From the NCBI GenBank assembly GCA_943333275.1, contig CALQSQ010000004.1:4909-68908 (forward strand): 64,000 bases of DNA. Reading direction: 5' to 3'. Shown in pieces: positions 6,727-23,241 of the stretch. Under the pieces are notes generated by a model. That model ran no database searches, was not told where the DNA came from, and worked only from the letters and a program-made list of their open reading frames with translations. The position numbers and the translations under genes are program-made. This DNA is from Akkermansia muciniphila (GTDB taxonomy: Bacteria > Verrucomicrobiota > Verrucomicrobiia > Verrucomicrobiales > V1-33). Each line of letters opens with the position of its first letter. Positions within the stretch are counted from its first letter, which is position 1.

Positions 6727-8529
6727 TCATTCCGTCGTCTGATAGGTGAGCCACTCTCGCCAACTTCCATAACTCGTGATTTCCCTGGCTGTCTCGCTGA
6801 TCAGGCCTTCACAAACGAAACCACACACGTGCGATCCATCCGCGAGCTGCACACGGCCCAGGACCAGCGGCGCGGCGATGCCTTCGAGGAAGGATCCCAT
6901 GGTGGATTTGGGGATTTCCCAGACTTCGAGTTCGATGGCGGCTCCGCCTTCTCTGACGCGGACCATGCCAGGCCGGTCAGGAATGCGTCCGTTTGCGGGT
7001 AGCAGGTAGAGTCGATAGCAAGGCGCACTCTGGATTCGTTGCACAAAGCGGGCCTTGCGGTCGCTCAACTGCCAGTGCAACGCGAGTCCCTCCATGTGAG
7101 CCCCGCAGACGGCAATCTTCATCATGGGGACTGTGGATGGTGGCGATTCAGGCAGTGGCACGTCACTGCTCATTGCGGAGGATTTTCCAAGCGGAAGATT
7201 GGCCTCAGCGTGAAAGCGGGCCGCGCAATCGAGCACAAGTGCATCGCCATGAGGGGGCGCATAGAAAGTCACGCCCCAGGGCAGGCCATTGCACTGAAAT
7301 CCGGCGGGAACGGCACAGCCGCAGAGATCAAGCAGGTTCATGAAATTCGTATAACGACCAAGGTTGCTGTTGAGTTTGATCGGTTCGGCCTCCACTTCTG
7401 CCCTGGTATAAATAGTCCCGGCGGTTGGCATCAGCAGAGAATTGATGTTTTGCCACGTGGCTTCACTGGCGCGCCTGAGTTCCGCGAGTCGATATTGCGC
7501 CCGGAAAGCATCCACCGCCGTCCCCTTGAGACCGCCTTCAATGATTGTGCGAGTCACTGGCAAAAGGGCTTCTGGCTGTTCTGCGAGAAGTTTACTGACA
7601 ACTGCGGTGCGTTCCGCCACCCACGGCCCTTCGTAGAGCAAACGCGCTGCATCAAGAAAGGCGCTGATGTCCACTTCGATGATTTCCCAACCCATTCCGG
7701 CGATGGTTTGTCTGGCATGATCAAACAATCGTTTGGCATCATCGTTGCCAAAGAAATCCAGTTGATCGGACCTCGGAACACCAATCTTAGGCGGCCAGGA
7801 AAACTCCGCACTCAATCCTGCACTGCGTGCATAGGCATCCGCTTCATCAAACGCAGCCGCCACTTTCAAAACACTCGACGCATCCGCCGCCGTCAGCGCA
7901 AAAATGGAGACGCAATCGAGCGTCCGGCACGCAGGCACAACCCCGGTGCAACTCAACAAACCTCGCGTCGCCTTAAGCCCGATGAGATTGTTAAACGAAG
8001 CGGGAACGCGCCCCGATCCAGCAGTGTCCGTTCCTAATGAAAAACTGCACAGGCCTTTCGCCACCGCCACCGCTGATCCCGCGCTGCTGCCACCAGGAAT
8101 GTAATCTGGATTGAAAGCGTTTCCTGGCACCCCATACGGCGAACGCACGCCGACAAGTCCTGTGGCGAACTGATCAAGGTTGGTCTTGCCCATGGGAATG
8201 GCTCCGGCATCAATCAGCAGTTTAACCACGAAAGCATGCTGGGCTGGCTCATAACTCCATGCCGGGCAGGCGGCCGTGGTGGGAAATCCAGCGCAATCAA
8301 TGTTGTCCTTGATGGCAAAAGGAATGCCGTAGAGCGGCTTGGAATCAGGCGATTCTCCTTCGAGTGCTCGAAGCGATTCTCTCAACTGCTCTTCCGTGGG
8401 CCGACTGATCCAGATCGCCGGATCATCCGACGCGGCGCGCCTCCATGCATCGAGAACAATTTCCCTGGGGCTGCAGGATCCCTCCCGATAGGCCTTGAGC
8501 AGCGCGGAAATGGAAAGATCTGGAATCAT
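6727..8529 (-). CDS. Allophanate hydrolase (amidase-signature domain plus C-terminal allophanate hydrolase domain)
   Basis: 600 aa. The amidase signature [12 protein letters not shown] with the upstream KDNID motif is present. The start overlaps the carboxylase stop by 4 nt. Confidence 0.85.
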
Positions 8530-11500
8530 AGTTGCACGGAGATGAGAGTTTGGCCCGGAGTCACTGCCTGACCTTCCTTCACATGCAGCGCCGCCACGGT
8601 GCCCGAGGTCGTGCTCGGAACGTGGATCTCCATCTTCATGGCCTCAACGATGAGCAGCGTTTGTCCTTCCTCCACACGATCACCGACGGCGACCTGCAGT
8701 TTCCAAAGACTTCCAGTCACCGGACTGACAACCGCTTCATGGCCGTCCGGCAGCGTGATCTCTGTATCCGCCGTCATCGCACTGGAAGTCGATTCCGTGA
8801 CGTCCAGCCCCGCGATCCTCCACCGTTCACGCTCAGCCGCGAAGGCATCGCGCTGAAAGGAACGAAACGCAGCGATGCTTGGTGATTCGCTTTCAAGAAA
8901 TTCGAGATAGTCACTGAGTCTGAAACTGCTCTGTTCGATGCGCGGCGTGAAACGTCCCGCAGGGAAATCGCGCCTCAGCTCCATCAACTCGTCCGCACTG
9001 ACAAGATAGAACCGCACTTGATCAAAGAACCTCAGCAGCCACGGCTTGCCATCTTCGAAGACATCCGTGACCCGATCACGATTCCACATTTGAATGGTGC
9101 GTCCCACAAATTGGTAACCGCCCGGTCCCTCCATACCATAGATGCACATGTAGGCACCTCCGATGCCCACGGCATTCTCCGGCGTCCAGGTGCGGGCGGG
9201 ATTGTATTTGGTCGTGACCAGGCGATGCCGTGGATCAAGCGGTGTCGCGACCGGCGCGCCAAGGTAAACATCACCCAACCCAAGCACCAGATAGCTCGCA
9301 TCGAAAACAATGCGCTGCACATCGGCGATACTCTCCAGCCCATTGATGCGACGGATGAACTCAATATTGCTGGGGCACCAAGGAGCATCGGGCCGAACCG
9401 ATTGCATGTATTTGTCTATGGCCAGTTGCGTCTGAGGATCGTCCCATGAGAGCGGAAGATGCAAGATGCGGGATGGCACTTTCAAATGCTCCACATCATC
9501 CAGCGAGGAGATTAACTCTTCCACCAAACGTTCAACCTGCTCTAGTCGCAGCTGCTCGCCATCGATATGAATCTGCAACGAACGAATCCCCGGCGTGAGA
9601 TCCACGATGCCGGGATGATTCATCGACTGAAGTTTTAAATAGACGGCATGCACCCAGAAGCGCAGGGCGATATCGAGCACCAGAGGCCCAAACTCCACTA
9701 GCAGGTTGCGATCCCCCGCCGGACGATACACAACTTCGGGGCGTGATGCGCAAGCCGCGATGCGATGCCGCACTGCCTGCAAAGCAGCCAGTCCACCCGT
9801 TGTTAATTCCGGAGGTGTTCCACCCGCCATGGAATCTTCTACAAACGCATCGAGCGCCTCTGCTTGCTCCAGCGAAATTGCCACGAACTGGATGCGATCT
9901 CCTGGTTTCAGTTGCCCCACTTTCCACAAGTCAGCATGGACGACAACAGCCGGGCACACAAAGCCGCCCAGGCTCGGGCCATCCGGTCCCAGGATGATTG
10001 GCATGTCGCCGGTGAAATCAATGGAGCCGATCGCATAAGCGTTGTCATGAATGTTCGAGGGATGCAATCCTGCCTCACCACCGTCCGCACGCGCCCAGGT
10101 GGGTTTTGGTCCGATCAAACGCACACCGGTGCGCGCCGAGTTGTAATGAACCTCCCATTCCGTTGCAAAAAACATTTCGATGTCTTCAGGAGTGAAAAAA
10201 TCAGGCGCACCGTGTGGACCGTAGAGGACGCGAATCGTGTCCACTTTGTTTCCGGCAGAGAAGGGATGGAGCTTGGCCAAAGAGAAAGAACCGATGGCCG
10301 CAGTTGCAGGGTTGATGTGAATAACATCGCCGACGCGCAACGCCCGCCCAGCGTGGCCGCCGAAATTCCCCAGCGTAAACGTCGAGCAGCTTCCCAGATA
10401 AAGCGGCACATCCAATCCACCCTGAACTGCCAGATAAGCGCGGCACCCATGTCCGGTGGTGCGCCCAAGCTTAAGCGTCTGTCCGGCAAGCACGGAGATC
10501 GGCTTCCAGAAGGCAACGGAAGCACCATCCAACTCCGCACTCATTTCTGCGCCAGTCAGACAAATGGTAGTGTCCGCATTAAATCGGAGCGTCGGCCCCG
10601 CCAGAGTCATTTCAAGACCTGCGACCCCTTCCTCGTTTCCGATCAGTCGATTTGCGATGCGCAGGGCCAGCGGATCCATCGCCCCAGAGGGAGGCACGCC
10701 GATTTCCCAATAGCCAAGCCGCCCCGGCGTATCCTGCACTGTCGTTTGTACTCCTGGAGCGAGCACATCGATGGTTGAAGGTCGATACTGAAATGAAGTG
10801 GCCAGGGCGCGCGTGGTGATGCGTCCTTCGGTGAAAAGTGGATCGCGAATCACCTGCCGCAGGTAGGCCAGGTTCGTCTCGATGCCACTGACGTTCGAAT
10901 GGTCCAGCGCATGCTGCATCTTGGAAATGGCGTCGGCGCGGTCTGCACCGTGCACTATAATCTTCACCAGCAGCGGATCGTAATACGGCGTGACTTCCGT
11001 TCCTGTGCTGATCCATCCATCACAGCGGGCTTCCCTGCAAAGTTGCACATCCGTGAGGCGCCCGCAGCTCGGTTGGAAGTCCTTGTTAGGATCCTCCGCA
11101 TAAACACGGACTTGGATGGCGCTTCCTTTTGGCGTAAAAGCAAAGCTTTCCAACCCAACATCCTCGCCTGCGGCGGTCCGAACCATCCATTCGACGAGGT
11201 CCAGTCCGGTAACGCATTCCGTGACGGTGTGTTCTACCTGCAGCCGGGTGTTCACCTCCAGGAAATAAAACTCGTTGGTGTCGGCATCATACACAAACTC
11301 CACGGTGCCGGCCGAACGGTAGTTTACGGATTTCCCCAACCGCACGGCGCAATCCCAAAGTGCATAGCGTGTCTCATCGGATAAGTTCGGCGCTGGTGTC
11401 TCCTCGATGATTTTCTGATTGCGACGCTGCGTCGAACAGTCGCGTTCCCCCAGGGAAACGAGCGAGCCTTTTCCATCGCCGAAAATTTGCACCTCAACGT

Positions 11501-12119
11501 GCCGTGCATTGACGACCAGCTTCTCAACAAACACCCCGCCATCCCCGAAACTTGATTTCCCCTGACGCACCACGGATTCAAACGCGGCCCGCAGTGATGC
11601 AACGTCATCACACCGCCGCATTCCGATTCCGCCGCCGCCCGCCGTGCTCTTGAGCATGACGGGAAAACCAATGCGCGACGCCTCACTCACCGCCTCGTCC
11701 GCATCGCGCAGCAGGGCCGAGCCTGGAACCAATGGAACCTTGCAGGCCAGGGCTCGTTCACGCGCGGTGTGCTTCAATCCAAAGGCGCGCATTTGATCAG
11801 GCGTTGGCCCCATGAAAGCCATGCCGGCCTGTTCGCAGGCTTCGGCGAAACCCGCATTTTCACTGAGCAATCCATATCCGGGATGAACCGCCTGCGCACC
11901 GCATTGAGATGCAATTTCCAACAATCGCTTCTGGTTGATGTAGCTCTCGGCCACCGGCGCGGGGCCCAGCAGATAGGACTCATCGGCCATGGAGACATGG
12001 GGCGCGTCGCGATCCGCTTCGGAATATACAGCAACGGAGCCAACGCCCATTTTTTTGAGAGTTCGGATGATGCGGCAGGCGATTTCGCCGCGATTGGCCA
12101 CGAGGACTTTGGTAAACAT
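8526..12119 (-). CDS. Urea carboxylase / guanidine carboxylase (biotin carboxylase + carboxyltransferase AHS1/AHS2-like domains + biotinyl domain)
   Basis: 1197 aa. The N-terminus [20 protein letters not shown] is a biotin carboxylase start, and the C-terminal biotinylation motif EAMKME is present. The length and order are typical of bacterial urea-carboxylase-type enzymes. Confidence 0.9.
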
Positions 12120-12122
12120 AGG

Positions 12123-12755
12123 TCAGTCCCAGATGAGCACGCGCACCGGGGTTGGGTTGTAGGCATTGCAGGGATTGTTTAACTGCGGGCAGTTGGAAAT
12201 GAGGCACATCACATCCATTTCGGCGCGCATTTCGACATACCGTCCCGGGCCGCTGACGCCATCGGCAAAGCTGAGCTGGCCATCCAGTGTCACGGGCACA
12301 TTCATGAAAAAATTGATATTGCAGGTGATGTCGCGCTTGCCCATGCCGTGGCTCCAGCATTGCACGCCGCGGATAAAACTGTCGCGGCAGGCATGCATCG
12401 GCTCTTTTTCGACTGCGTAACGCATAACGTTGCTTTCGCGTGAGCAAGCGCCGCCAAGCGTGTCGTGCCGGCCGCAGGTGTCGGCCACGATAGTGAGCAG
12501 CGGATTACCCCGTGTGGACATGAGCTTCGTTCCCGTCGTCAAATAAAGCGCAGCCTGATGACGGATGGTATCGCTCGCGCTGTAGCGTTCGAGCGGATCA
12601 TGGGCGTTATAAAACAGAGTGTCGGCGGCCTGGTTTCCCTCCAGATCCTCGATGCGCAGGGTCTGCCCTTTTTTAACAAGATGCAGCCAGTGATCGCCCG
12701 CAGGCACGATCTCGTCGTGAACTGCTTCAGAAGGATTGAGGTGGGATGCGATCAT
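12123..12755 (-). CDS. DUF1989 protein (urea-carboxylase-associated protein 2 / carboxyguanidine deiminase subunit-like)
   Basis: It is a paralogue of the upstream gene and sits immediately 5' of the carboxylase (3-nt gap). I moved the start to the internal Met (MIASHLNP), which gives an ATGA overlap with the upstream stop. Confidence 0.75.
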
Positions 12756-13468
12756 CGGGCGAGGAGGTAAAATTCTTCGGTGCTGCAATGCGCCCTGGCG
12801 TTCTCGGGCCGCACGATGAAGCTTGGGTCATCGACAGCGGGAGGATCACTCCTGAGGACCTCGAGCCGCACCCGACGCGGGTGATACTGTGGATCGGGAT
12901 CCAGCGGATGCTGGCAGGTGTTCAGCACCACAAGCGTGTCCATTTCGAATCGCAGATCGACTGAGTCCCCCGGCTTTGAGTTTCCACTGACAAAATCCAG
13001 CCGCCCTTCCTCGTCCGCCACAATCTTGCTGAACCAATTAAGGTTCGGAACCAGATCACGCTCGCCCAGTCCCCATTTCGAAAGCTCGATGAGGAAGCAG
13101 TCCCGGGCATTGCGATGAAAATCATTGCGGGCGGTTTGAAAATTTTTCTCCCCATATTTTTTAAGGACCAGGGAGGCATCGCTAGCCCCACACACGGAGT
13201 CGTGCCAGCCAACGTCATCCCGGGTGATCGAGGCGAACAATCTCCCCATGTCCGAATGAAGGCAATAGGGGGCGCGCAGGTAGAAAATGTGCTGGCCCTT
13301 GAGCGTATCGGGCATGTTGTAGCGTTCATGACGCTCGGTGGCGTTATAGAGCAGCATGCCGACATTGGCGCCGCCCTCGAGATCGGTAAGTCGCAGGGTC
13401 TTATGCCTGCCAATGACGCGCGACCACATGCCTGCGCCGCTGAGTTCGATGTTATAAAAGGGAGTCAT
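12752..13468 (-). CDS. DUF1989 protein (urea-carboxylase-associated protein 1 / carboxyguanidine deiminase subunit-like)
   Basis: 238 aa. Its pattern is related to the downstream paralogue ([20 protein letters not shown] versus [20 protein letters not shown]). It overlaps the regulator stop by 4 nt. Confidence 0.75.
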
Positions 13469-13929
13469 GGTTCATCCGCCTGGGTTTGAATGGGTGGCAT
13501 GAGGGTGCGCGTCAGGTTAAGCCGTCCAGCGAGCACCCCCTTGCAGGTGAGGAGTTTGTTGGCAATTTGGCGCAACCGCTTTGCCGGACCCTGAACAAGA
13601 ATCACTTCCATGGTGTTACTGTTTTCCAGCAGGACATGCAGGGAACTGATCACCTCCCGAATGCTCTCATGCTGGATGTCGGCAATTTCCTGCTTCAACC
13701 CGGGCCGCTTGTGATCGTAGAAAAGCGTGATTGTGCCGGCCATCATGCGGTTGCCTCGAAGGCTGTAATAGTCGGCAATGTGCTGGGTGAGGACTTCCGC
13801 CACCGCCTGCGATCGATTGTGGAATCCTCGCTCGATCATCAACTCCTGAAACTGACGAAACACGCCCTCGGGCAACGAGAGCGTAACCCGGTGGGCAGTG
13901 GTGGAGTCAGCGGAAGGAAGGTCGGCCAT
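13465..13929 (-). CDS. NikR-like ribbon-helix-helix (CopG family) transcriptional regulator with a C-terminal ACT-like domain
   Basis: It aligns by eye along the whole of E. coli NikR ([10 protein letters not shown].., [14 protein letters not shown] versus RGYNNRSEAIRDIL; [30 protein letters not shown] versus [30 protein letters not shown]). The ATG at 13929 is preferred over the GTG at 13953. Confidence 0.7.
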
Positions 13930-13967
13930 TTTGTGATAAGGAATCTTGAGCACGATTCAGACCATTC

Positions 13968-13996
13968 GTATGAAGAAAAATCAAATTGGTATGAAG
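13968..13996. promoter_or_regulatory. Direct repeat GTATGAAG-N13-GTATGAAG (21-bp period) in the AT-rich gap upstream of the RHH regulator; candidate operator
   Basis: Exact 8-mers lie at 13968-13975 and 13989-13996. GTATGA is the half-site of the E. coli NikR operator (GTATGA-N16-TCATAC). This is the only sizeable intergenic gap inside the 15-gene cluster. Confidence 0.35.
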
Positions 13997-14006: not shown

Positions 14007-14822
14007 TTAAATCACATTCTGCAATCGTCCCATCATCCAACGGTTCACCTCGCGAAGGTCAGCCACCCGCTTCCGTGTAAATAGCTCCTCCTGCAGGTAT
14101 CCATCCGGGCCGAACTCCGGGGTGAACGTGGGCAGAGGATTCCCATGCAAAACTTGTCTTTCCGCAATTCGCCGCCACCAGCGTTCATGGGCTACGAGGG
14201 CGGCGGCATATTCCGGCACACGGGGATCGGGAACCTGCGGTCCCTGCTCGTAGCCCACGCGTGCATGCACATGAAGGGCACGATTCGCGATTAAATCCAA
14301 CAATTCCCCCTCCTCATCCATCACCAGCCTTTCGGTCACCGCGCACCAGTGGCTGAAATCACAGGTTAATCTCAGCTCAGGAATTCCCTTCAACAAATCG
14401 CGCGTCACCCAGGGATGGAACGTAGGCCGGCTCCGGTGCGTCTCGAACGCAATCGGGATGCCAAATTCCCTCTCGAGTGCGAGCGCTTGCGCATAAAAAC
14501 TAAGGGCTTCGGCCATCGGCCAGGCGTCGCTCCCGGCAAGGGCATTGATCAAAATCGGTTTGAACGGAAGGGACTTTTCAATTTGATCACGCAAATCCTC
14601 AAAATGAACCTTAGTGGAGAGGTGCGCGCGGGGCACGTATCCGCCCCCGGTCGCGATTTCTGCAATCCATGGCACGGATCGCTGACGCAAACTTTCCACG
14701 TTGGCATCATCCACCGGCACCGGTCCCTCGATTCCACAGGCCTCCCATTCGGCAGCAAGCGCCAATGCGCCGGTGATATTCACCTCGTTTCCCCAGCAGG
14801 ACACAAAACATCGCGGTTTCAT
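14007..14822 (-). CDS. Xylose-isomerase-like TIM-barrel protein (sugar phosphate isomerase/epimerase family)
   Basis: 271 aa with family-typical strand ends (AFETH, HVHARVG, CDFSHW). It overlaps the upstream gene by 4 nt. Confidence 0.6.
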   Translation of the reverse strand: MKPRCFVSCWGNEVNITGALALAAEWEACGIEGPVPVDDANVESLRQRSVPWIAEIATGGGYVPRAHLSTKVHFEDLRDQIEKSLPFKPILINALAGSDAWPMAEALSFYAQALALEREFGIPIAFETHRSRPTFHPWVTRDLLKGIPELRLTCDFSHWCAVTERLVMDEEGELLDLIANRALHVHARVGYEQGPQVPDPRVPEYAAALVAHERWWRRIAERQVLHGNPLPTFTPEFGPDGYLQEELFTRKRVADLREVNRWMMGRLQNVI

Positions 14823-15679
14823 GGCAAATCGAAGTTCACCTCCCTTCTGGCCTCCGGATGGCCCCTAACGTATTCGGCAATCTCCTGCCCACGTGCGAAC
14901 CAAACGTAACCTCGTTCCCTCGCCTTTGTCAGCAACTCCTCCAGCAACCGCACCCGTGAGGGGCGCCCGCTCAGCCAGGGATGCAGCGTAAGCACGAAAC
15001 AGCAGCCAAAATCACGCATGGCCTCGAATTCGCGCCACCAGAGATCGAACACGTTGCTGCAATTCTGCGGAATGGAACCCCAGGCTGGCTCGGCATTGAA
15101 GGCGAACTGCTCCCAGTCCTCCAGCATCCATTGGCCGGGAATTTCGATGAGACCATTTGAGTGCGTGTAGGGCACGTCATCGCCCATCATGCTGGCATTA
15201 TAAAGATAGCTGAACTCCTTCAACAATCCGGGTGTTCCAGGATTGATCTCAAACCATGGAGCGCGAAACCCAACGGGGCGCCTGCCCGTGATACGCTCAA
15301 GGATGCCGGTACTTTTTTCCAAAACCGCGCGTTCCTCCTGTGGAGATAAATGGGCCAGCTTTTCGTGCATGTGCCCATGTGCGCCGACCTCATGCCCGCG
15401 GGTGACGATGGCTTCCATCATCCGTGGATGACGTTCGGCGATGTAACTCGGCACGAAAAACGTGGCCGGGAGTTGCAAATGATCGAGCAAGCCCAGTAAT
15501 CGCGGCACGCCAACGTTTGGTCCATATTCGCACTGCGACATCGTGGTGAGGCGGGAAGCGAGCGTTGGGTCCTCGGAGAGCGCGGTGGTTTCGCCATCGA
15601 CATCAAAGCACAGCATGAAGGCACACTTGGCACCGTCGGGCCAGATAAAGCGTGGAGGAGGGGAGTAGAGTTCAGTCAT
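14819..15679 (-). CDS. Polysaccharide deacetylase (CE4/NodB) family hydrolase, PuuE-allantoinase-like size
   Basis: NodB-type motifs are present: FDVDGET, PATFFVPSYIAERHP, GHEVGAHGHMHE. I moved the start to the internal Met (MTELYSPPP), which gives an 8-nt overlap with the SDR stop. The longer ORF (to 15820) would overlap the SDR by about 150 nt. Confidence 0.7.
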   Translation of the reverse strand: MTELYSPPPRFIWPDGAKCAFMLCFDVDGETTALSEDPTLASRLTTMSQCEYGPNVGVPRLLGLLDHLQLPATFFVPSYIAERHPRMMEAIVTRGHEVGAHGHMHEKLAHLSPQEERAVLEKSTGILERITGRRPVGFRAPWFEINPGTPGLLKEFSYLYNASMMGDDVPYTHSNGLIEIPGQWMLEDWEQFAFNAEPAWGSIPQNCSNVFDLWWREFEAMRDFGCCFVLTLHPWLSGRPSRVRLLEELLTKARERGYVWFARGQEIAEYVRGHPEARREVNFDLP

Positions 15680-16442
15680 GCCAGTGCCCTCCGACAATGT
15701 TGTTCGGTGAAGTGAGCGGATACTCGTTCCAGCCGGCGGTGATTCCTCCGTCCACTGGGATGTTGGCTCCGGTGATGTAGCTCGCGTCATCGCTGGCAAG
15801 GAAGTGAAACGCCGCAGCAATCTCGTCGGGCCACGCGAGGCGGCCCAACGGTGTCGCCTTGCTCACGAATGAAATCTCTGGGTTGTTGGGAATATCGGTG
15901 ACAGCAGGCGTGAGCACGGTGCCGGGGCAGACGCAATTCACGGTGATGCCTTTCGCGGCCAGTTCGATGGCACCGAGTTTGGTGAGGTGAATGACGGCCG
16001 CTTTGGAAGTGGAGTAAGCGGTGCCACTGGGCGAGCCGATCATGCCTACAAAGGAGCCCGTGTTGATGATGCGACCGCCGCTTTCGAGCAGTTGCCCGCC
16101 GTGCTTGATACCGAAGGCGACGCTGTGAACATTCACTTCAAAGGTGCGCTGCAGAAGCTGCGGTGTGAGTTCATTGAAGCTGACACCGAGCGGTTGGATG
16201 CCCGCGTTGTTGATGAGGATGTCCACGCGACCAAACTCTGACTTCGCTTGCTCCAACATGCCGCGCACTTCGTCCTCGGCGGAAACATCGGCTTGATGGA
16301 ACACAGCGCCTTCGATCTTGGCAATGTTGCGATCCACCAGCAACACGCACGCTCCAGCCTTGACGAAGCGCTCGACAACGGCGAGGCCGATGCCAGAGGC
16401 TCCTCCAGTTACGACGGCGACTTTGTTGGTCAGGTCAAACAT
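15672..16442 (-). CDS. Short-chain dehydrogenase/reductase (SDR) family oxidoreductase
   Basis: Cofactor motif TGGASGIGLA, NNAG, and catalytic YSTSK (YxxxK). Confidence 0.85.
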   Translation of the reverse strand: MFDLTNKVAVVTGGASGIGLAVVERFVKAGACVLLVDRNIAKIEGAVFHQADVSAEDEVRGMLEQAKSEFGRVDILINNAGIQPLGVSFNELTPQLLQRTFEVNVHSVAFGIKHGGQLLESGGRIINTGSFVGMIGSPSGTAYSTSKAAVIHLTKLGAIELAAKGITVNCVCPGTVLTPAVTDIPNNPEISFVSKATPLGRLAWPDEIAAAFHFLASDDASYITGANIPVDGGITAGWNEYPLTSPNNIVGGHWHD

Positions 16443-16837
16443 GGTGGTGGTCCGTTGTGCGTGAATTTTGGAAGCTCCGGATCAAGCACGAGCCAGGGAA
16501 GATGATCGGCCATCCAGTTGTAGTCGTCAGGCTGCAGTGATGCCGCGTCATCCATGGTGCCTAGAGTCAGCTCCAAGAGATCAGGATAGGCGCTGTCGTA
16601 GAAGCTAATGGGTGAGCCGCAGGCAGCACAAAACGCGCGTTCGCGCCCTTCGTAGTGATGCACGCGCAGTTCGCCGGTGATGATGCGGATGTCCTCTTTG
16701 GCAAAGAAGACCCAGCCCTGGAACGGCGCGCCACTGGCACGGCGACAGTCTTCGCAGTGGCAGAGGGACGTGTTTAGTGGTGCGCCGTGCGCTTCGTAGC
16801 GCACAGCTCCACAGAGGCAGTGGCCAGTCCACATCAT
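16430..16837 (-). CDS. GFA / CENP-V family zinc protein (glutathione-dependent formaldehyde-activating enzyme family)
   Basis: MMWTGHCLCGAVRYEA...CHCEDCRRASGAPF...FCAACGSPI shows the GFA cysteine pattern. The start at the internal ATG forms an ATGA overlap with the Rieske gene stop. Confidence 0.7.
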   Translation of the reverse strand: MMWTGHCLCGAVRYEAHGAPLNTSLCHCEDCRRASGAPFQGWVFFAKEDIRIITGELRVHHYEGRERAFCAACGSPISFYDSAYPDLLELTLGTMDDAASLQPDDYNWMADHLPWLVLDPELPKFTHNGPPPCLT

Positions 16838-18096
16838 GGCCTTTGAGAGGGCGCGGGTGGAATGTCGGTCGCGGGCATAACGCCGCGGATCCGGGCCGCA
16901 AGGTATCGTTGGATCAGCCAAACGGACATCTCCAAGTAACTCAAGCGGCCACGCTGATAACCGCTGGCATAGAACCCGCGCTGCACGGCGGTGCACATTT
17001 CCATGTCTTCCATGTGAAACTTGCGCAGAATCTCAATCTGCTCGGCACACATCGCTGGCCAGTTCAGGTGCTCGGTGGTGGATGCAGGCACGAGCGTGGT
17101 GGTCAGAAGCTTCACGCGATCCGCAGCGGCGGGGATCATGCGGTAGAAGATGAGGCGATCCGGGTTCGCCGAGATCAGCATGAGCGGATGCACGAGGAAG
17201 ATGTGCCACTCGTTTCTCAACTCCGCTGGCAGATCAATGGGCGGCATCCCATGCACGGACTCACCGCGGGCTTCCGCAGCCAGCATGTCATCGAGCATCG
17301 CGGGCTTCACGGGCAGATGCGCTCGGATGTAGGCGGGGCGTTCTTGTTCGTTCCAAGTGAGCTTGGCTGGCATCATCGGCTGCAGCGTCGTCGAGTGCGC
17401 GCCGATGTGGTGATACGACTCCATGAAGTTCTCCGCGAGCACCTTCCAGTTGAAAGGACAGTCCCACTCCATTTGGATGACCATCTTCATCTCACTGATG
17501 TTCCAGGGCGCGAGTGCCTCGGCCAAACCACTGAGTCGCTCATGCAGCGGCGGTGCGGCACCATCGAGATTGACGAAGACAAAGCCATTCCACACCTCGC
17601 AAGCGAAGGACGTCAGGCCCCACTCCGCACGATCAAAGCATTCCGTCTTCTCCATCTCCGGCGCCCCTTTGAGCCGACCGTCCAAATCAAACGTCCACGC
17701 GTGATACGGGCACATGAAAACGCGCGAATGGCCACAGTCCGGCGGCCCGTGGCCGGCATAGCCAAAACCCTCGGGCATGATGTCCATCGCCCGATGCGGA
17801 CACACTCGCGAGAGCACGCGGATGTTCTCTTTGCCTCGCACCACGATGAGCGGATCGCCGAAGACGTCGATGTTCAAGTAGTCGCCGACGTTCGGGATCT
17901 GCGACACATGCGCGAGGGGCAGCCAGTCGTTGCGGAAAACGTGATCGACTTCCCAATCAAAGAACGCCTCGCTCGTGTAGGCTTGTGCTGGCAAGGTCGT
18001 GGCCTGCGCGAGCGGGAGTTGCGCGATGCGTTGGATCTCGGCTTGGATCTGTTCGACGCTCCACTGCGGAAGCGCGTTTCTGGATGACGTGCTCAT
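16834..18096 (-). CDS. Rieske [2Fe-2S] non-haem-iron oxygenase, alpha subunit only (GbcA/Stc2/NdmA-like monooxygenase class)
   Basis: Rieske motif CPHRAMD...CPYHAWTF. Mononuclear-iron motif NFMESYHHIGAHS. There is no beta subunit or reductase gene nearby. Confidence 0.85.
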   Translation of the reverse strand: MSTSSRNALPQWSVEQIQAEIQRIAQLPLAQATTLPAQAYTSEAFFDWEVDHVFRNDWLPLAHVSQIPNVGDYLNIDVFGDPLIVVRGKENIRVLSRVCPHRAMDIMPEGFGYAGHGPPDCGHSRVFMCPYHAWTFDLDGRLKGAPEMEKTECFDRAEWGLTSFACEVWNGFVFVNLDGAAPPLHERLSGLAEALAPWNISEMKMVIQMEWDCPFNWKVLAENFMESYHHIGAHSTTLQPMMPAKLTWNEQERPAYIRAHLPVKPAMLDDMLAAEARGESVHGMPPIDLPAELRNEWHIFLVHPLMLISANPDRLIFYRMIPAAADRVKLLTTTLVPASTTEHLNWPAMCAEQIEILRKFHMEDMEMCTAVQRGFYASGYQRGRLSYLEMSVWLIQRYLAARIRGVMPATDIPPAPSQRP

Positions 18097-18099
18097 GGT

Positions 18100-19461
18100 T
18101 CAAAACAACCGTGCATACTGATCGATCTCCCACTGGCTGACGCGCTGGTGGTATTGGAGCCACTCCTCGCTCTTGTAGGCAACGAACTCGTTGCGGAGTT
18201 CGGTGCCGAGCGTGGCCTCCACAAATGGATCCTCAGCAAATGCGCGGACGGCTTCGTCCAGGGTGCGGGGGAGTTCGCTGATGCCGCGCGCCTTGAATTC
18301 CTCCGCGCTGAGGGCGTAAAGATTATCCTCGTTGGAATTCCCGGGATCCAATTTTTCACGGATGCCCTCAAGCCCCGCGGCCAGCACCAGGGTAGCGGCG
18401 AGGTAGGGATTGCAGGCGGCATCGGCATTGCGGGACTCCATGCGTCCACCCGCCATCGGCACGCGCACGGAGTTTGTGCGGTTGTTGCGTCCGTAACTGT
18501 TGAACACCGGCGCCCACGTATAGTTTGCCATGAGTCCCCGGCGCACCAGCCGCTTGTAACTGTTCACCGTGGGAGCGAAGGCAGCGCACAAGGCGCGGCC
18601 GTGTTTCAGGACTCCTCCCATGAAATGATAGGCCATCTCACTGATACCCAATCCGCGCGGATCGTCTGCATGCGCACGGGCAAACCTGTTTTTCCCCGTC
18701 TCCAGATCATACAGCGACATGTTGAAATGCGCGCCACTGCCAGTCTTGTCGGCGAAGGGCTTGGGCATAAACGTCGCCAGCAATCCCTCCTCTGCGGCGT
18801 AGTGCTTGGCCATGTAGCGGAAGAAAATGTAGCGGTCGCACATGGTGAGGGCGTCGGCGTATTTGAAATCGAACTCGAACTGGGATGATGCGTCCTCATG
18901 GTCGAAGGAATACAGATCCCATCCAAGGTCATTGATGCAGCTGGCGACCTTGTCGACCCATGTGAACCGATCCAGGAAGCGCTTTACGTCATAGCATGAC
19001 TTCACAAGCGTCTCATCGGGATTGGGGAACTCAAGCTTCCCGTCGGTGGTCAGTTTCAGGACAAACAGCTCGCATTCGATTCCAAGGTTCATGCCGAGGC
19101 CCATGTCGGCAGCCTGCTTCAATACCTTTTTCAGGGCGCAGCGGGTGTTCACTTCGTAGGGCTCACCCTTGAATGTATTGTCTGCCGGCATCCAGGCGAT
19201 TTCCTTTTGCCAGGGAAGTTGGATGATGTTGTCAACGTCAGGAAGCGAGGCGATCTCATCATCGTTGGGACTCTGGCCCAGGCCGTCCAGCGCATATCCG
19301 GTGTAAAGTTCGGAGCCTCTGGCGAAATCCAGGAAATGATCAATCGGCACAAATTTACCCTTTGGCACACCATGGATGTCAACATAGGCGCCAATGCAAT
19401 ATTTCACGCCCTTGGCCTTGAGGGAGTCGCGGATGGAGGTCAGTTCGGAATCGGTCTTCAT
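18100..19461 (-). CDS. Glutamine synthetase family protein (GlnT / gamma-glutamyl-amine ligase-like)
   Basis: 453 aa. The GS catalytic-domain pattern is present ([19 protein letters not shown]...R.E.R). Confidence 0.8.
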
Positions 19462-19484
19462 TGATTATCTGTGGGGATGGTGGT

Positions 19485-20273
19485 TTAATACAAGACGTTG
19501 GAGTCGGACCAGTGATGCGGATCGAGGGGCGGGATTTCGCAACGGGCGCGGTTGATGATCTCGGCCAGCGCCTCGCCCATTTTGACAAACATTTTCGCGC
19601 CGCGATCAGCCGAGCCCAGCGATGGCTTGCCGGTGATTCCGTTCAGGCTTGTTTGGGAGACGGGGTAACTGAATACGAGACCTTCCGTCCGGTCGGGATC
19701 ATCCTCCACCCAATCCATGCGCACGGTGTCCGGCGCCAAGTGCAGCATGAGATCAGTCTCCGCACAATTTGCATGCAGGTCTGCGGCGTCATTGATGAAA
19801 TAATTCCAAATCTCAGTAGTGAGCTGGTAGGTGTGTCTGAGGCCGATTTGAATTCCCCCCAGAAATTCCGTCCGAATGCGATCCACTGCCACCCGAAGGG
19901 ATGCGTCGTTTCCGAAATGGGCGTTGACGATGAGCAGTCGCCTCCACCCTGTGCGCATGCTCCACAGGGCGATCTCCCGGATCATGGCGATGAGGGTTTC
20001 GTGATTGATCGAAAATGTCCCCGGCCACTTGGAAGTGTGCCCGACGGAAACCCCGTAGGAAAGTGGGGGCAGCATGGGCACCATGGTTCTCGCGGAGGCG
20101 TAGGAGCAGACAGCGGAGGCGATGGCGGTATCCGTGTTGATTGGTAGGTGGGGGCCGTGCTGCTCGGTCGCACCGATGGGGAGGATCAGCATGTCCTGAC
20201 CTCCAGCCTGGAGTTCCGCGATGGCTCTCCAGGAAAGGTTCTCCAGCAAAACGGGGGATTCATTCGACATCAT
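19485..20273 (-). CDS. Creatininase-family amidohydrolase (creatinine amidohydrolase / formamide hydrolase family)
   Basis: Motif LPIGATEQHGPHLPINTD plus the downstream VNAHFGN. I moved the start to an internal Met (MMSNESP), which overlaps the ATPase stop by 11-14 nt. Confidence 0.75.
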   Translation of the reverse strand: MMSNESPVLLENLSWRAIAELQAGGQDMLILPIGATEQHGPHLPINTDTAIASAVCSYASARTMVPMLPPLSYGVSVGHTSKWPGTFSINHETLIAMIREIALWSMRTGWRRLLIVNAHFGNDASLRVAVDRIRTEFLGGIQIGLRHTYQLTTEIWNYFINDAADLHANCAETDLMLHLAPDTVRMDWVEDDPDRTEGLVFSYPVSQTSLNGITGKPSLGSADRGAKMFVKMGEALAEIINRARCEIPPLDPHHWSDSNVLY

Positions 20274-21150
20274 CGCCTGCCTTGGTGAGTTTGACGACGG
20301 GCAACTTGTCCTCTTCAACATCGATGGGTGGATGGATGAGTTCCTCAAGGCGGAGCTTGAGTGCGAGATATTCAGGAGAAACAAACTGTGCGGTGGAGCG
20401 CGGGCGGGGAATGGGATTCTCAATCACCTCCACGATCCGTCCCGGATTGGTTCCCATAACCATGATGCGATCCGAAAGATACGCGGCCTCCTCAAGGTCA
20501 TGCGTGATGAAGAGAACCGTGATGTCCACTTTCTTCCAAATTTGTAGCAGGTAGCTTTGCATCTGGGCGCGGGTCTGGGCATCGAGTGCGCCAAAGGGTT
20601 CGTCCATGATGAGGATGCGCGGCTCATTGGCGAGAGCCCGCGCAATGGCGACGCGTTGCTTCATTCCGCCCGACAATTCATGGGGATAGGACTCCTCAAA
20701 TTTCGAAAGTCCCACCATGTCGAGCCATTGCCGGGCTTCCGATTCGGCGGTGAATTTGTCCTTGCCGCGCATTTCAATGCCAAACATGACGTTGCGTTTC
20801 ACCGTCAGCCAGGGAAACAGCGTATAGCCCTGGAAGACCATTCCGCGATCCGGGCCGGGTTCACCAATCTCCCTCCCATCAAGCAGCGCCACGCCTCCGC
20901 TGCATTCGTCCAGACCGGCGATGATGCGGATGAAGGTGGATTTACCGCATCCGGAGGGACCGATGACGGTGATGAATTCGCGGCGGCGGATGTCGATCGA
21001 AACGCCGTCGAAAACAGTGCGCGTGCTGCCGTTGACGCCATAGGTCTTCTTCAGGCCGCGCACGCTCAGAATCACGGGACGCTGCCGGATGCGTTCAAAC
21101 CGGGCTGCGACCTCCGGGGAAAGATTGCGATAATCGAGGGCCGCACTCAT
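20260..21150 (-). CDS. ABC transporter ATP-binding protein (NitT/TauT nitrate/sulfonate/bicarbonate family)
   Basis: Walker A GPSGCGKST, signature LSGGMKQR, Walker B ILIMDEPF. Confidence 0.9.
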   Translation of the reverse strand: MSAALDYRNLSPEVAARFERIRQRPVILSVRGLKKTYGVNGSTRTVFDGVSIDIRRREFITVIGPSGCGKSTFIRIIAGLDECSGGVALLDGREIGEPGPDRGMVFQGYTLFPWLTVKRNVMFGIEMRGKDKFTAESEARQWLDMVGLSKFEESYPHELSGGMKQRVAIARALANEPRILIMDEPFGALDAQTRAQMQSYLLQIWKKVDITVLFITHDLEEAAYLSDRIMVMGTNPGRIVEVIENPIPRPRSTAQFVSPEYLALKLRLEELIHPPIDVEEDKLPVVKLTKAGDDVE

Positions 21151-22181
21151 GCTTCGACGGCCTTAGCAGGCTTGGGTCTTGAGTTGAAAATGCGGCCAAG
21201 CAATGACCCCTTACCTGACGCGGCAGCGGAGCGCCGTTTCCACGGGAAGATCACCCTCCCAATCCAAGCCAGCAGCAGGTCTGTGGTGAAACCGATGATG
21301 CCGATCATGAAGATGGCGGCATAGACGTTGTCGAAATTCCGGTAACGCGCCTGCTGATTGATGAAATACGTGATCCCCGACATCGTGCCGACGACTTCGG
21401 CAACGATCAGATAGGTCCACGCCCAACCCAGCAGAATGCGCATGTCGGTATAGATGTCGCTTACCGAAGCCGGGATTACCACACGCCTCAGCAGTTTCCA
21501 CCCCCGTGCCCCCAGGGTCTGGGCAGCCTCAATGAGCCCGGGATCGACCTTGCGCACGGTATTGCTGATGACCAGAACCTGCTGGAAGAAAGTGCCGATG
21601 AAAATGATCGCAATCTTCGGGCCATCATCGATTCCCAAAATGGCCACACACAGGGCTCCGAAGGCCGGGGCGGGCAGGTAGCGGAAAAACTCAATGAATG
21701 GTTCCTGCAGGCGGGAGAAGAAGCGGTAGGTGCCGCAGAGAATGCCCAATGGCACACCGAAAATTGAGGAAATGACAAACCCCCAGAAGATGGTTCGGAG
21801 GCTGTGCGCCAGACTCTCGTGCAGCCACGGCTCATTGGGCAGGCGCGGCTCGGTGGTAAAGGCTGTGTAAAACGCCCGGGCCACCCTGTGTGGCGGTGGA
21901 AGGTAAAGGGGATTGATCCGATATCCTTCCGGCAGCGTGCCGCCCGCTGCCTGCACCTTTTCCAGTTCGGCATCGAAGTCCGCCCGCGGCACATCCATGT
22001 CCTCGACAAAATAGTCCACATCTCCAGGTGCAGTGACATGGACGAGTGGATGCCAGAGCCACGGCACGTAACTGATGGCGCACCAAAGCGCGAGCGGCAG
22101 GAGAAACGAACACAGCGCCAGCACAAATCTTCGCCGTGGGGGCAGGTCGTGCTTCAACCCCAGCCAGTCGCGCTTCGGCAT
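21147..22181 (-). CDS. ABC transporter permease (NitT/TauT family)
   Basis: Polytopic membrane protein carrying the EAA-loop-like IEAAQTLGARGWKLLRRVVIPAS. It overlaps the ATPase gene by 4 nt. Confidence 0.85.
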   Translation of the reverse strand: MPKRDWLGLKHDLPPRRRFVLALCSFLLPLALWCAISYVPWLWHPLVHVTAPGDVDYFVEDMDVPRADFDAELEKVQAAGGTLPEGYRINPLYLPPPHRVARAFYTAFTTEPRLPNEPWLHESLAHSLRTIFWGFVISSIFGVPLGILCGTYRFFSRLQEPFIEFFRYLPAPAFGALCVAILGIDDGPKIAIIFIGTFFQQVLVISNTVRKVDPGLIEAAQTLGARGWKLLRRVVIPASVSDIYTDMRILLGWAWTYLIVAEVVGTMSGITYFINQQARYRNFDNVYAAIFMIGIIGFTTDLLLAWIGRVIFPWKRRSAAASGKGSLLGRIFNSRPKPAKAVEA

Positions 22182-22200
22182 ATGGGTGGTGGGTGAAAAC

Positions 22201-23172
22201 TTATTTCAGGGCCTCAACCACACTTGGGGTCAGGTAACTTTCGGGTTTCTGGGAGTCCTTGTAAACCTTGTTGTCCAGATTGAATTTGTTTCCAACCGCC
22301 ATGGAACCATAAATGGAGTCCAGACCCTCGCCTTTCTTGTAGGCTGCCTTGGCTTCCTTCAGCGTGAGGAAATGAGTTCCGGGGACATTGCTGGCGTAGT
22401 CTGCAACTTCCGCCCCAACCTTGGCCGCCATGATCTTTACCGCGTCGTCCTTGGTTTTTTCATCCAGTAGGTAATCCACACACTTGTAAAAGACAGCTGT
22501 GAACTTGGACCATGACTCCTTGTTTTTGGCATAGCTGGTGGGATTGACCGCCAGCACATCGTAGATCAGGCCCTTGGCCTCCGCGCTGGAGAAAAGTTTT
22601 TTGGAACCGGCAACCTGCTTCAGGGCCTGGCCCGAGGATGGATACCAGGCGCCGATGGCGGCGACTTTTCCAGAAGCGAGCGTCTGGGGGGTTTCGTTCG
22701 TCGGGGTGTTGACGAGTTCGACATCGGATTGCTTCATGCCATTGACCTCCAGGGCCTTGAGCAGCAGCAGGTGTTCCACGAGGGTGAGTTCCAGACCGAC
22801 CTTCTGGCCCTTGAGGTCCTTGATGGACTCGATTCCCGGTTTGCCAACGATCGCGTCACTTCCATCGCTGTAATCCAAAAGGGCGATGATCTTGCTCTTG
22901 GCTCCGTTGGCGCCATTCACCAGCGCATCCGTGGCCACGCAGGTCACCGCATCAATCTTTCCAGCGGAAAATGCATCCAGTGAGGGCAGGTAGTCGAACC
23001 AAACCAGTTCAACTTCGATTCCTGCCTCCTTGAACCATCCTTTCTGCTTCGCCACCTCAAGGACGGTATAGCCAGGCCAGTCTGAATAACCGACTTTCAG
23101 CGGGGCGGCATTAGCATTGAAGAGCAGGCCGGTCAGGAGGAGCACTAGGCAGGGAAGGAGTTTGGCTTTCAT
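22201..23172 (-). CDS. ABC transporter periplasmic substrate-binding protein (NMT1/TauA-like)
   Basis: Signal peptide MKAKLLPCLVLLLTGLLFNANA followed by a type-2 SBP pattern (LKVGYSDWPGY...). It is the first gene of the cluster. Confidence 0.8.
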   Translation of the reverse strand: MKAKLLPCLVLLLTGLLFNANAAPLKVGYSDWPGYTVLEVAKQKGWFKEAGIEVELVWFDYLPSLDAFSAGKIDAVTCVATDALVNGANGAKSKIIALLDYSDGSDAIVGKPGIESIKDLKGQKVGLELTLVEHLLLLKALEVNGMKQSDVELVNTPTNETPQTLASGKVAAIGAWYPSSGQALKQVAGSKKLFSSAEAKGLIYDVLAVNPTSYAKNKESWSKFTAVFYKCVDYLLDEKTKDDAVKIMAAKVGAEVADYASNVPGTHFLTLKEAKAAYKKGEGLDSIYGSMAVGNKFNLDNKVYKDSQKPESYLTPSVVEALK

Positions 23173-23225
23173 GGGAGATGTGGAATTATGGTTGCGGATT
23201 AATTAGGTGTAACCCCTCCCTCTCC

Positions 23226-23241
23226 AGCATCCCTTGTGCCA
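23226..23241 (-). promoter_or_regulatory. Candidate sigma-54 (-24/-12) promoter for the 15-gene cluster
   Basis: The minus strand reads TGGCACAAGGGATGCT against the consensus TGGCAC-N5-TTGCW. GG/GC spacing is correct and there is one mismatch. It lies about 54 nt upstream of the SBP start codon. Confidence 0.4.

Follow-up and report, generated by a model that had tools for sequence, protein, structure and literature searches.

A verrucomicrobial gene cluster predicted to feed substituted guanidines into guanidine mineralisation

What does a bacterium process with seven enzymes whose genes lie between those of an ABC importer and those of a guanidine-degrading module? The question is raised by a 64-kb stretch of verrucomicrobial DNA (64,000 nt, hereafter the window), in which 15 successive minus-strand open reading frames (ORFs) at 6727-23172, all co-directional, encode the importer, the seven enzymes, a NikR-like regulator and the four proteins of a guanidine carboxylase pathway. 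Free guanidine has only lately been recognised as a widespread nitrogen source for bacteria, its natural origin is an open question, and to our knowledge very few guanidine-releasing enzymes have been found. From comparisons of sequence and gene neighbourhood, we propose that the cluster very probably constitutes a functional unit that feeds a substituted guanidine into guanidine mineralisation. Within this proposal we lean, with less assurance, towards a Rieske oxygenase and a TIM-barrel protein acting as alkylguanidine hydroxylase and lyase, the core of an extended guanidine-assimilation operon.

A packed cluster and its guanidine carboxylase module

The 15 genes are given below from the importer to the allophanate hydrolase, with families assigned by comparing Pfam and NCBIfam profile scores with curated cutoffs.

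22201..23172, minus strand: NitT/TauT-type periplasmic substrate-binding protein (SBP; Pfam NMT1 and NMT1_2)
21147..22181, minus strand: ABC importer permease (Pfam BPD_transp_1), separated from the SBP gene by 19 nt
20260..21150, minus strand: ABC importer ATPase (Pfam ABC_tran), overlapping the permease gene by 4 nt
19485..20273, minus strand: metallo-amidohydrolase of the Creatininase/formamide-hydrolase family (Pfam Creatininase, 205 bits)
18100..19461, minus strand: GmaS-like gamma-glutamyl-amine ligase of the type III glutamine synthetase (GS) family (Pfam Gln-synt_C; TIGR03105, 617 bits, cutoff 470)
16834..18096, minus strand: Rieske non-haem-iron monooxygenase alpha subunit, CntA/GbcA-like (Pfam Rieske and Ring_hydroxyl_A)
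16430..16837, minus strand: GFA-family (glutathione-dependent formaldehyde-activating) zinc protein (Pfam GFA, 92 bits)
15672..16442, minus strand: classical short-chain dehydrogenase/reductase (SDR; Pfam adh_short_C2, with motifs TGxxxGxG, NNAG and YxxxK in the translation)
14819..15679, minus strand: CE4-family amidohydrolase with the polysaccharide-deacetylase fold (Pfam Polysacc_deac_1)
14007..14822, minus strand: divergent xylose-isomerase-like TIM barrel of 271 aa, candidate hemiaminal (N-hydroxyalkyl-guanidine) lyase (from an AlphaFold2 (AF2) model)
13465..13953, minus strand: NikR-like ribbon-helix-helix (RHH) regulator (Pfam NikR_C, 88 bits; NCBIfam NikR NF003381, 114 bits, cutoff 105)
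12752..13468, minus strand: DUF1989 protein of the UAAP1 type, carboxyguanidine deiminase subunit (TIGR03425, 303 bits, cutoff 206)
12123..12755, minus strand: DUF1989 protein of the UAAP2 type, second carboxyguanidine deiminase subunit (TIGR03424, 337 bits, cutoff 285)
8526..12119, minus strand: biotin-dependent carboxylase with guanidine-carboxylase signature (TIGR02712, 1842 bits, cutoff 1304)
6727..8529, minus strand: allophanate hydrolase (Pfam Amidase and AH_C; NF006043, 808 bits, and TIGR02713, 751 bits, both above cutoff)

Start codons follow the gene calls of the source contig, which belongs to a metagenome-assembled genome (MAG; GCA_943323985.2, CALPJW020000006.1). From the SBP gene to the allophanate hydrolase gene, successive junctions measure +19, -4, -14, +23, +3, -4, -13, -8, -4, +53, -4, -4, +3 and -4 nt, the only sizeable intergenic gap in the cluster being the 53 nt before the regulator gene. 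The Rieske stop and the GFA start share the sequence ATGA, the UAAP2-type gene likewise begins in an ATGA overlap with the UAAP1-type gene, and the latter overlaps the regulator gene by 4 nt. A first-pass annotation of the window had described 15 tightly packed minus-strand genes; all of these ORFs are present, every junction value was reproduced, and its ranges of 11-14 nt for an overlap and 53-77 nt for a gap are explained by alternative starts. The lower end of the span that it gave (6727-23241) stands, while the outer end has to be moved inwards, lying 69 nt past the longest SBP ORF (start 23172), and its family assignments for all 15 proteins were recovered by Pfam and NCBIfam. One flank holds genes for IMPDH, a polyprenyl synthase, ApbE and an MFS transporter, the other those for an NHL-repeat protein and a hypothetical protein; because these flanking genes are unrelated to the cluster (housekeeping), its boundaries are clear. 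The arrangement is no chance event, the same gene set being co-directional in 80 other species.

The guanidine carboxylase pathway is an ATP- and biotin-dependent route from guanidine to NH3 and CO2. Guanidine carboxylases have been distinguished from urea carboxylases by Asp at the position of Kluyveromyces lactis residue 1584 together with Asp at 1330, where urea carboxylases have Asn (Palatinszky et al. 2024, PMC11410670). The window carboxylase, which has the full architecture of BC, CT_A_B, CT_C_D and BCCP domains (Pfam), was aligned to K. lactis urea amidolyase (3va7/5i8i): window Asp701 (GSIDFTGD) aligns with K. lactis Asn1330 (GAINFTGD) and Asp950 with K. lactis Asp1584, and both guanidine-signature aspartates are thus present. 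Taken with the DUF1989 pair and the allophanate hydrolase, this signature identifies the end module, as far as sequence can assign it, as the guanidine carboxylase pathway; of the "urea/guanidine" module named at first pass, the guanidine type holds and the plain urea type does not. Among 21 related carboxylases readable at both positions, 17 carry Asp/Asp, three Asn/Asp and one Cys/Asp, and two more are readable at the first position alone, one with Asp and one with Asn. Loci with the gene order TIM, carboxylase (UC), allophanate hydrolase (AH), UAAP1, UAAP2 have Asn (L027, L031, L033, L042) or Cys (L019) at the D701 position and retain the DUF1989 pair.

Like the guanidine carboxylase pathway of Pseudomonas syringae, Raoultella and Klebsiella, the window contains all four enzyme families above curated cutoffs, with a NitT/TauT-type ABC importer in the same operon. 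Unlike that pathway, it places seven extra enzymes between the importer and the pathway genes, and it has a NikR-like protein regulator instead of a guanidine-I, -II, -III or -IV riboswitch; searches with Rfam models gave no guanidine riboswitch match at the gathering threshold in the whole window, nor any at E <= 5 within 6000-24000.

Conservation of the upstream genes in relatives

To survey relatives, we used an alignment of Rieske homologues to scan a single genome from each species, which yielded 80 loci, and searched these by tblastn with the 15 window proteins. The loci are nearly all from Verrucomicrobiota (Verrucomicrobiales, Opitutaceae, Akkermansiaceae, Chthoniobacterales and Pedosphaera), three isolates among them, and gene orders and modules were counted in the 39 loci that have full 10-kb flanks. 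Isolates that bear the cluster include Roseibacillus persicicus KCTC 12988 (L074), Opitutaceae bacterium MBA3-11 (L030) and Spartobacteria bacterium LR76 (L068). The core genes lie on one strand in relatives and follow at least 25 different orders among these 39 loci. The carboxylase module accompanies them in 21; in 6 it is replaced by an orthologue of the GdmH guanidinase (521 bits to Sll1077, PDB 7esr/7oi1) with a NiCoT transporter, three of these six also having urease genes. Some guanidine or urea module is found within 10 kb in 29 of the 39, and the co-conservation of the seven upstream genes with the end module, on which the first-pass annotation had staked its proposal, is thus borne out despite the shuffling of gene order.

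Because the carboxylase and GdmH routes interchange behind the same genes, we would expect those upstream genes to deliver guanidine. This is the strongest comparative argument that we have, and it points to guanidine as their common product, with two degrading routes being swapped behind them. These six loci couple the same upstream genes to an orthologue of GdmH, known from the guanidinase plus urease route of Synechocystis (Sll1077) and Nitrospira inopinata, and would thereby reach the same end as the carboxylase module of the window. The window, from which GdmH is absent, uses the nickel-free, ATP-dependent route. In the GdmH loci (L050, L056, L063, L066, L070 and L078), GdmH has a His-rich N-terminal extension; the urease genes are those of L056, L070 and L078, and Urt urea-transporter genes occur in some of the six.

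The importer gives a second comparative lead. Among NCBIfam models the SBP fits best the urea-carboxylase-associated TIGR03427 (134 bits, cutoff 334), and over 301 aa the protein shares 54% identity with the SBP from an operon of Paraburkholderia sprentiae that combines an MgdH-like oxygenase, a TIM homologue and guanidine carboxylase. By this measure of sequence, the window importer is orthologous to that of MgdH-type methylguanidine/guanidine operons.

The remaining genes recur to differing extents. The SDR is present in 51 and the CE4 protein in 53 of the 80 related loci, and in many gene orders their genes flank the Rieske gene; the GFA protein was found in 11 of 80, minimal Rieske-FGE-TIM-GFA clusters included. 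A gene of about 650-780 bp for a protein resembling formylglycine-generating enzyme (FGE) sulfatase-type proteins is found in 65 of 80 loci, the closest relatives of the window included, and its usual place is between the genes of the Rieske and TIM proteins. In the window it has been cleanly deleted at the SDR stop/CE4 start, 15672-15679, as seen by comparison with L010, L012, L013 and L014, and the FGE-like proteins that we inspected do not have the catalytic Cys pair of true formylglycine-generating enzymes. Reduced loci consist of ABC-creat-GS-Rieske-GS only (creat being the creatininase-family gene), a composition that recalls, by analogy, the glutamylate-then-oxygenate logic of aniline dioxygenase. 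At the other extreme, six loci (L028, L041, L051, L057, L062 and L068) have two Rieske paralogues, often two ligase paralogues, and a second, distant SBP/permease pair, and such fuller clusters suggest the handling of two substrates or two oxidation steps. One cluster variant, on a metagenome contig (L091, 2201-4936), additionally encodes an exporter of the SMR type (Gdx-like), an FMN reductase, a zinc alcohol dehydrogenase and, in a split gene, an AhpD-like protein, and an AhpD-like gene lies between the ligase and Rieske genes in nine further loci.

The Rieske oxygenase, the TIM-barrel protein and the accessory enzymes

CntA and GbcA hydroxylate a carbon attached to a cationic nitrogen and so cleave the C-N bond. 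The window oxygenase resembles CntA/GbcA/Stc2-type Rieske monooxygenases in its alpha-only architecture, no beta subunit gene lying nearby, and in its intact ligands: the Rieske ligands C99, H101, C129 and H132 (CPH, CPYH) are invariant, as are the candidate iron ligands H229/H230, H234 and E363/D364, which were assigned from motif only. It departs from these enzymes in scoring far under the equivalog cutoffs, in having no adjoining reductase such as GbcB or CntB, and in its proposed substrate, with a guanidinium in place of a quaternary ammonium compound. In the PDB it comes closest to carnitine monooxygenase CntA (132 bits); among NCBIfam models GbcA ranks first, where 125 bits against a cutoff of 670 led us to reject GbcA identity. 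In a neighbour-joining tree without support values, the window protein groups with the paralogues that adjoin FGE and TIM genes. Distant homologues of the Rieske protein (31-35% identity) and of the CE4 protein (about 40%) on plasmids lie in unrelated gene neighbourhoods.

The TIM-barrel protein of the window has no match in Pfam or NCBIfam, and its homologues do carry PF01261. The AF2 model is a (beta/alpha)8 barrel of eight strand-helix units (mean predicted local distance difference test, pLDDT, 86.5), and Foldseek matched it to ketose 3-epimerases, the C-glycoside deglycosidase DgpBC and rhamnose isomerase with template-modelling (TM) scores of 0.6-0.67, a probability of 1.0 and 12-15% identity. 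At the strand ends, residues E127, D155, H184/H186 and E236 do not vary, in the pattern of a Glu-Asp-His-Glu metal site. The gene is tied closely to that of the oxygenase, lying within 3.2 kb of it in 64 of 68 copies. Outside Verrucomicrobia, TIM homologues adjoin genes for 2-oxoglutarate (2OG)/Fe(II) oxygenases in P. sprentiae, Klebsiella pneumoniae, Kozakia baliensis and three MAGs, with TIM and oxygenase genes overlapping by 4 nt in four of these six cases. Five TIM homologues compared are 45-56% identical, and full-length comparison of five of the partner oxygenases, all but that of Kozakia, with MgdH gives 53-58% identity.

MgdH is an experimentally characterised methylguanidine hydroxylase (Sinn et al. 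2025, PMC12508155). Its product, N-(hydroxymethyl)guanidine, is an unusually stable hemiaminal that needs a dedicated lyase, MgdL, for the release of guanidine and formaldehyde (PMC12508155). MgdL is a beta-barrel protein unrelated to the TIM protein. We retrieved the Vreelandella boliviensis operon through the published MgdL sequence. On plasmid pl2 of P. sprentiae the order is SBP / MarR / TIM, oxygenase, UAAP1, UAAP2, uca, atzF, permease, ATPase, a content equal to that of the V. boliviensis mgd/gca operon except that a TIM protein occupies the MgdL slot. A tblastn search for an MgdL homologue in the window and the 80 loci gave chance matches only (E >= 0.6), and we therefore reject the TIM protein as an MgdL homologue and regard it as an analogue at most. 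Likewise, none of the 15 cluster proteins or 20 other window ORFs matches DIOX_N or 2OG-FeII_Oxy, the domains of an MgdH-type oxygenase. The window cluster resembles the V. boliviensis MgdH/MgdL system in being a guanidine carboxylase operon expanded by an oxygenase and a second protein that would free guanidine; it differs in that the oxygenase is a Rieske protein and the presumed lyase a TIM barrel, with no homologue of MgdH or MgdL, and in adding four further enzymes and GFA. From these neighbourhoods we infer that TIM proteins have taken over the role of MgdL without being homologous to it, and that a Rieske monooxygenase takes the place of MgdH in Verrucomicrobia. The place of the window Rieske protein in the tree, the chemistry of CntA and GbcA, and the overlap of the GFA gene with the Rieske stop are in keeping with this view. 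Among the candidate substrates listed at first pass, methylguanidine thereby gains specific support, TIM homologues standing beside MgdH orthologues.

In two loci (L098, 7253-12973, and L099, 7925-13722), genes for an APC permease and for the ethanolamine ammonia-lyase proteins EutB and EutC come directly after those of an MgdH-like oxygenase and a TIM homologue, with a kinase-GAF-sigma54 activator adjoining and no guanidine-degrading gene seen within the flanks. Because some MgdH-like/TIM pairs adjoin eat-eutBC or aldolase/glyoxylate reductase genes in this manner, the TIM protein might have the carbon product, and not the hemiaminal, as its substrate.

The other upstream enzymes are harder to name. 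None of the seven reaches the curated equivalog cutoff for an enzyme of a characterised unrelated pathway, and the assignment of each to such a pathway, named at first pass as a ground for refutation, was thus not observed. The creatininase-family protein falls below the equivalog cutoffs for creatininase (TIGR04448, 122 against 235) and MftE (141 against 172), and its best PDB match, creatinine amidohydrolase, reaches 82 bits only; the creatininase score, far under its cutoff, led us to reject a true creatininase (EC 3.5.2.10). The CE4 protein scores 86 bits against a cutoff of about 424 for PuuE allantoinase (TIGR03212), an identity that we reject for the same reason, and its best PDB match is 3rxz (252 bits), a Mycobacterium smegmatis protein of unknown function. 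On profile scores, both the creatininase-family and the CE4 proteins are nameable to family level only. A lead from an M. smegmatis nitrogen-limitation transcriptome was dropped: msmeg_1425, a "creatininase subfamily protein", is listed there under urea metabolism only. We take this protein to be the mycofactocin peptidase MftE and therefore set the lead aside.

The ligase is better defined. Its best PDB matches are the glutamate-methylamine ligases 9qur (368 bits) and 7cql (326 bits), and alignments to both indicate that it keeps the GmaS catalytic residues Asp177, Glu179, Glu186 and Arg312 as well as Trp300, the Trp that replaces the Glu flap (residue roles from PMC7948447). Unlike GmaS, it has an altered amine pocket: in the proposed methylamine site Gln175 is replaced by Ser and Asn188 by Asp (Q175S, N188D), invariably so in 73 of 73 full-length cluster copies. 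To judge from these residues, it is an amine ligase and not a glutamine synthetase, and plain methylamine is probably not its substrate. A comparison of its pocket with that of E. coli PuuA gave no information, the region aligning poorly.

The presence of this ligase raises the possibility of a gamma-glutamylation pathway for an amine-bearing, agmatine-like guanidine, in which the ligase would glutamylate the substrate, the Rieske enzyme would oxygenate the gamma-glutamyl derivative, guanidine would be released, the SDR would oxidise the aldehyde, and the creatininase-family or CE4 hydrolase would remove the glutamyl group. The complete set of catalytic residues and the invariant, more acidic pocket are consistent with such a role, as are the position of the ligase gene, directly after the creatininase-family gene in 53 of 56 related loci, and the composition of the reduced loci. 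The coupling of a GS-like ligase to a Rieske enzyme is moreover established for aniline (through gamma-glutamylanilide) and 1-naphthylamine. The window thus resembles gamma-glutamylation systems of amine catabolism (GmaS; AtdA1/TdnQ with Rieske; Puu) in that a GmaS-family ligase adjoins a Rieske oxygenase and an amidohydrolase, but differs from them in that its annotated genes include no GATase-type gamma-glutamyl hydrolase and no N-methylglutamate pathway. We judge the pathway unlikely for this cluster: it leaves both GFA and the link between TIM proteins and MgdH orthologues unexplained, the window Rieske protein belongs to the TIM-adjacent clade and not to the GS-flanked one, the importer is orthologous to that of an operon with MgdH, TIM and guanidine carboxylase and no ligase, and the PuuA comparison lends it nothing.

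The ligase's structural relatives could also be taken at face value. Methylguanidine, or methylguanidine derived from creatinine, would then be hydrolysed to methylamine and urea, with the carboxylase working on urea; the ligase would make gamma-glutamylmethylamide, the Rieske enzyme would demethylate it to glutamine and formaldehyde, and GFA would take the formaldehyde. The adjoining GS, Rieske and GFA genes of the window fit this scheme, as does the urea-type Asn of four related carboxylases, and an old report of the conversion of creatinine through methylguanidine to methylamine and urea is cited in PMC12623156. Against it, the window carboxylase carries the guanidine signature, and six loci use the GdmH guanidinase instead, an exchange that would serve no purpose behind genes that yield urea. 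Gln175 and Asn188 of the methylamine pocket are replaced in the ligase, the window has no ureohydrolase-type methylguanidinase, and the TIM protein is left without a role, so that we regard this route as quite improbable.

Regulation, the proposed route and its significance

Two elements of possible regulatory significance accompany the genes.

13968..13994, minus strand: operator-like direct repeat TCATAC-N15-TCATAC in the 53-nt gap before the regulator gene, its single occurrence in the 64-kb window
23185..23213, minus strand: weak promoter-like site upstream of the first gene, one of two sigma-70-like matches in 6000-24000

The regulator resembles NikR in combining RHH and NikR_C domains, and the half-sites of the repeat lie about two helical turns apart, as in NikR operators; for this comparison of geometry we used what we take to be the E. 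coli NikR operator sequence. It differs from NikR in its metal site. Aligned with Pyrococcus horikoshii NikR (2bj1), it has H, H, L and T at the nickel-ligand positions instead of H, H, H and C, and since it thus keeps only two of the four high-affinity ligands, with Leu in place of a His and Thr in place of the Cys, we reject canonical nickel sensing. Among 26 cluster orthologues the patterns include HHHY, RHLT, HHLT, RHQR and others, with the Cys kept in none of the 26. The TCATAC-N15-TCATAC repeat also precedes the NikR-like gene in the close relatives L010-L014, and in distant loci its place is taken by a palindrome, GTAATAC-N14/15-GTATTAC, located 4-66 nt before the regulator gene; repeats before the NikR-like gene are seen in L020, L024, L030, L041, L051, L055 and L085 as well. 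In five loci (L039, L060, L064, L065 and L067) a repeat of the same kind lies 100-265 nt upstream of the SBP gene that heads the cluster. Because repeats of this kind precede the SBP gene in five relatives, in addition to those found before the regulator gene, both parts of the cluster would be under common control, which suggests one regulator for the two parts that senses something other than nickel. Because the window element sits at the internal position only, an internal promoter before the regulator is likely here. The common regulation expected at first pass is therefore supported by the relatives, among which such repeats lie before the regulator gene and also before the importer; the window has its element before the regulator alone.

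The promoter-like site is preceded by a terminator-like hairpin (23278-23295) after the IMPDH gene. The two sigma-70-like matches in 6000-24000 compare with a mean of 7.3 in shuffled sequence, and a simple promoter/terminator scan of this region found no convincing internal terminator, a result that neither supports nor opposes a single transcript.

An internal promoter before the carboxylase module, as suggested by the regulator gene with its 53-nt gap and operator-like repeat, also bears on whether two unrelated pathways merely adjoin, the upstream seven genes serving some amine or heterocycle and the carboxylase module standing independently under its own regulator. That 10 of the 39 full-flank loci have no guanidine or urea module within 10 kb would agree with such a division. 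The association of the two parts nevertheless survives at least 25 gene orders and even the exchange of the carboxylase module for GdmH and NiCoT (with urease in some loci); in some loci the creat-GS pair sits between the TIM gene and the regulator, relatives have repeats both at the cluster head and at the regulator gene, and TIM homologues lie inside the guanidine carboxylase operon of a betaproteobacterium. We consider a chance adjacency of this kind highly improbable.

The reading that we favour, a substituted guanidine hydroxylated and cleaved ahead of guanidine mineralisation, can be set out as a route. The importer would take up an N-alkylguanidine, most likely methylguanidine or a close relative, and the CntA/GbcA-type Rieske monooxygenase would hydroxylate the carbon bound to the guanidino nitrogen. 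The metal-dependent TIM protein, standing in for MgdL, would split the stable hemiaminal into free guanidine and an aldehyde, the GFA protein would deal with formaldehyde, and the freed guanidine would enter the carboxylase pathway to yield NH3 and CO2. In place of guanidine riboswitches, the NikR-like protein would act as a repressor that does not bind nickel canonically and that probably controls the operon through TCATAC-type repeats. The creatininase-family, GmaS-like, SDR and CE4 enzymes may provide conserved accessory steps that turn a larger guanidine, cyclic and creatinine-type or N-acylated, into an alkylguanidine, or they may use the substrate in a gamma-glutamylated form. More speculatively, the SDR and CE4 proteins could oxidise the hemiaminal to formylguanidine and then deformylate it, or could process a creatinine-type ring from creatinine through creatol and creatone to methylguanidine. 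Any specific precursor, creatinine among them, is a doubtful choice.

A number of observations weigh against this reading. At the level of the enzymes, a simple methylguanidine route gives no part to two of the best-conserved genes, those of the creatininase-family protein and the GmaS-like ligase. Pfam scans revealed no Rieske reductase or ferredoxin (FNR-type) in the cluster or in 20 other window ORFs. No similarity in sequence links the TIM protein to MgdL, the proteins nearest to it in fold are isomerases, epimerases and beta-eliminating lyases, and some MgdH-like/TIM pairs lie beside eat-eutBC, or beside genes for a class II aldolase and glyoxylate reductase. At the level of the loci, the ten without a guanidine or urea module within 10 kb, the four related carboxylases with the urea-type Asn and the one with Cys, and the detection of GFA in only 11 of 80 count in the same direction, and the version of the cluster in the window may be incomplete, its FGE-like gene being deleted. 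The case as a whole is a sequence-based one from a MAG.

The rest of the window holds several loci of separate interest. A plus-strand stretch at 41569-51528 encodes two large TPR proteins, two ORFs without a family match, a DUF3492 and GT4 glycosyltransferase, and a PelG protein; we take the glycosyltransferase to be PelF-like and the stretch to resemble a Pel-type exopolysaccharide locus. On the minus strand at 51571-55581, the DNA primase gene dnaG is followed immediately by a gene for a primary sigma factor (RpoD-like, 629 aa), presumably the classical dnaG-rpoD arrangement. A 620-aa fusion of a glucosamine-6-phosphate isomerase/6-phosphogluconolactonase domain with a PIG-L (GlcNAc-PI de-N-acetylase) domain is encoded at 579-2441 (plus strand), and an 850-aa protein with weak repeated matches to DUF642, HpiC1-like and CBM_4_9, probably a secreted carbohydrate-binding protein, at 32211-34763 (minus strand).

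How much of this is new can be stated in parts. Literature searches found no published description of this gene combination. The end pathway is already known, as is a guanidine carboxylase operon expanded by an oxygenase/lyase pair (published 2025). The "undescribed pathway" of the first-pass annotation accordingly holds for the gene cluster, of which the literature searched gave no description, and not wholly for the idea of an expanded guanidine operon, which the MgdH/MgdL work of 2025 anticipates. Within the literature searched, the Rieske/TIM version and the use of the TIM family as a replacement for MgdL, Proteobacteria included, appear to be undescribed, as do the conserved ligase/hydrolase/SDR/CE4 set and the nickel-blind NikR-like regulator.

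Our findings offer a testable candidate route from substituted guanidines to guanidine in about 80 species of Verrucomicrobia, whose habitats include soil and freshwater, and since the same upstream genes join either the nickel-free carboxylase or the nickel-dependent guanidinase route, they constitute a natural experiment in pathway modularity. We advance only tentatively, as a possibility that falls somewhat short of what we would expect to see confirmed, the broader proposal that Verrucomicrobiota carry a phylum-wide, undescribed pathway that frees guanidine from natural substituted (methyl-, creatinine-derived, alkyl- and acyl-) guanidines with enzyme types new to guanidine metabolism. If this proposal is true, those types would include a Rieske alkylguanidine monooxygenase, a xylose-isomerase-like TIM-barrel hemiaminal lyase that independently replaced MgdL and is found in Klebsiella and Paraburkholderia too, a GmaS-like ligase with a guanidino compound as the substrate of glutamylation, and a NikR-fold regulator re-purposed for a non-metal ligand.

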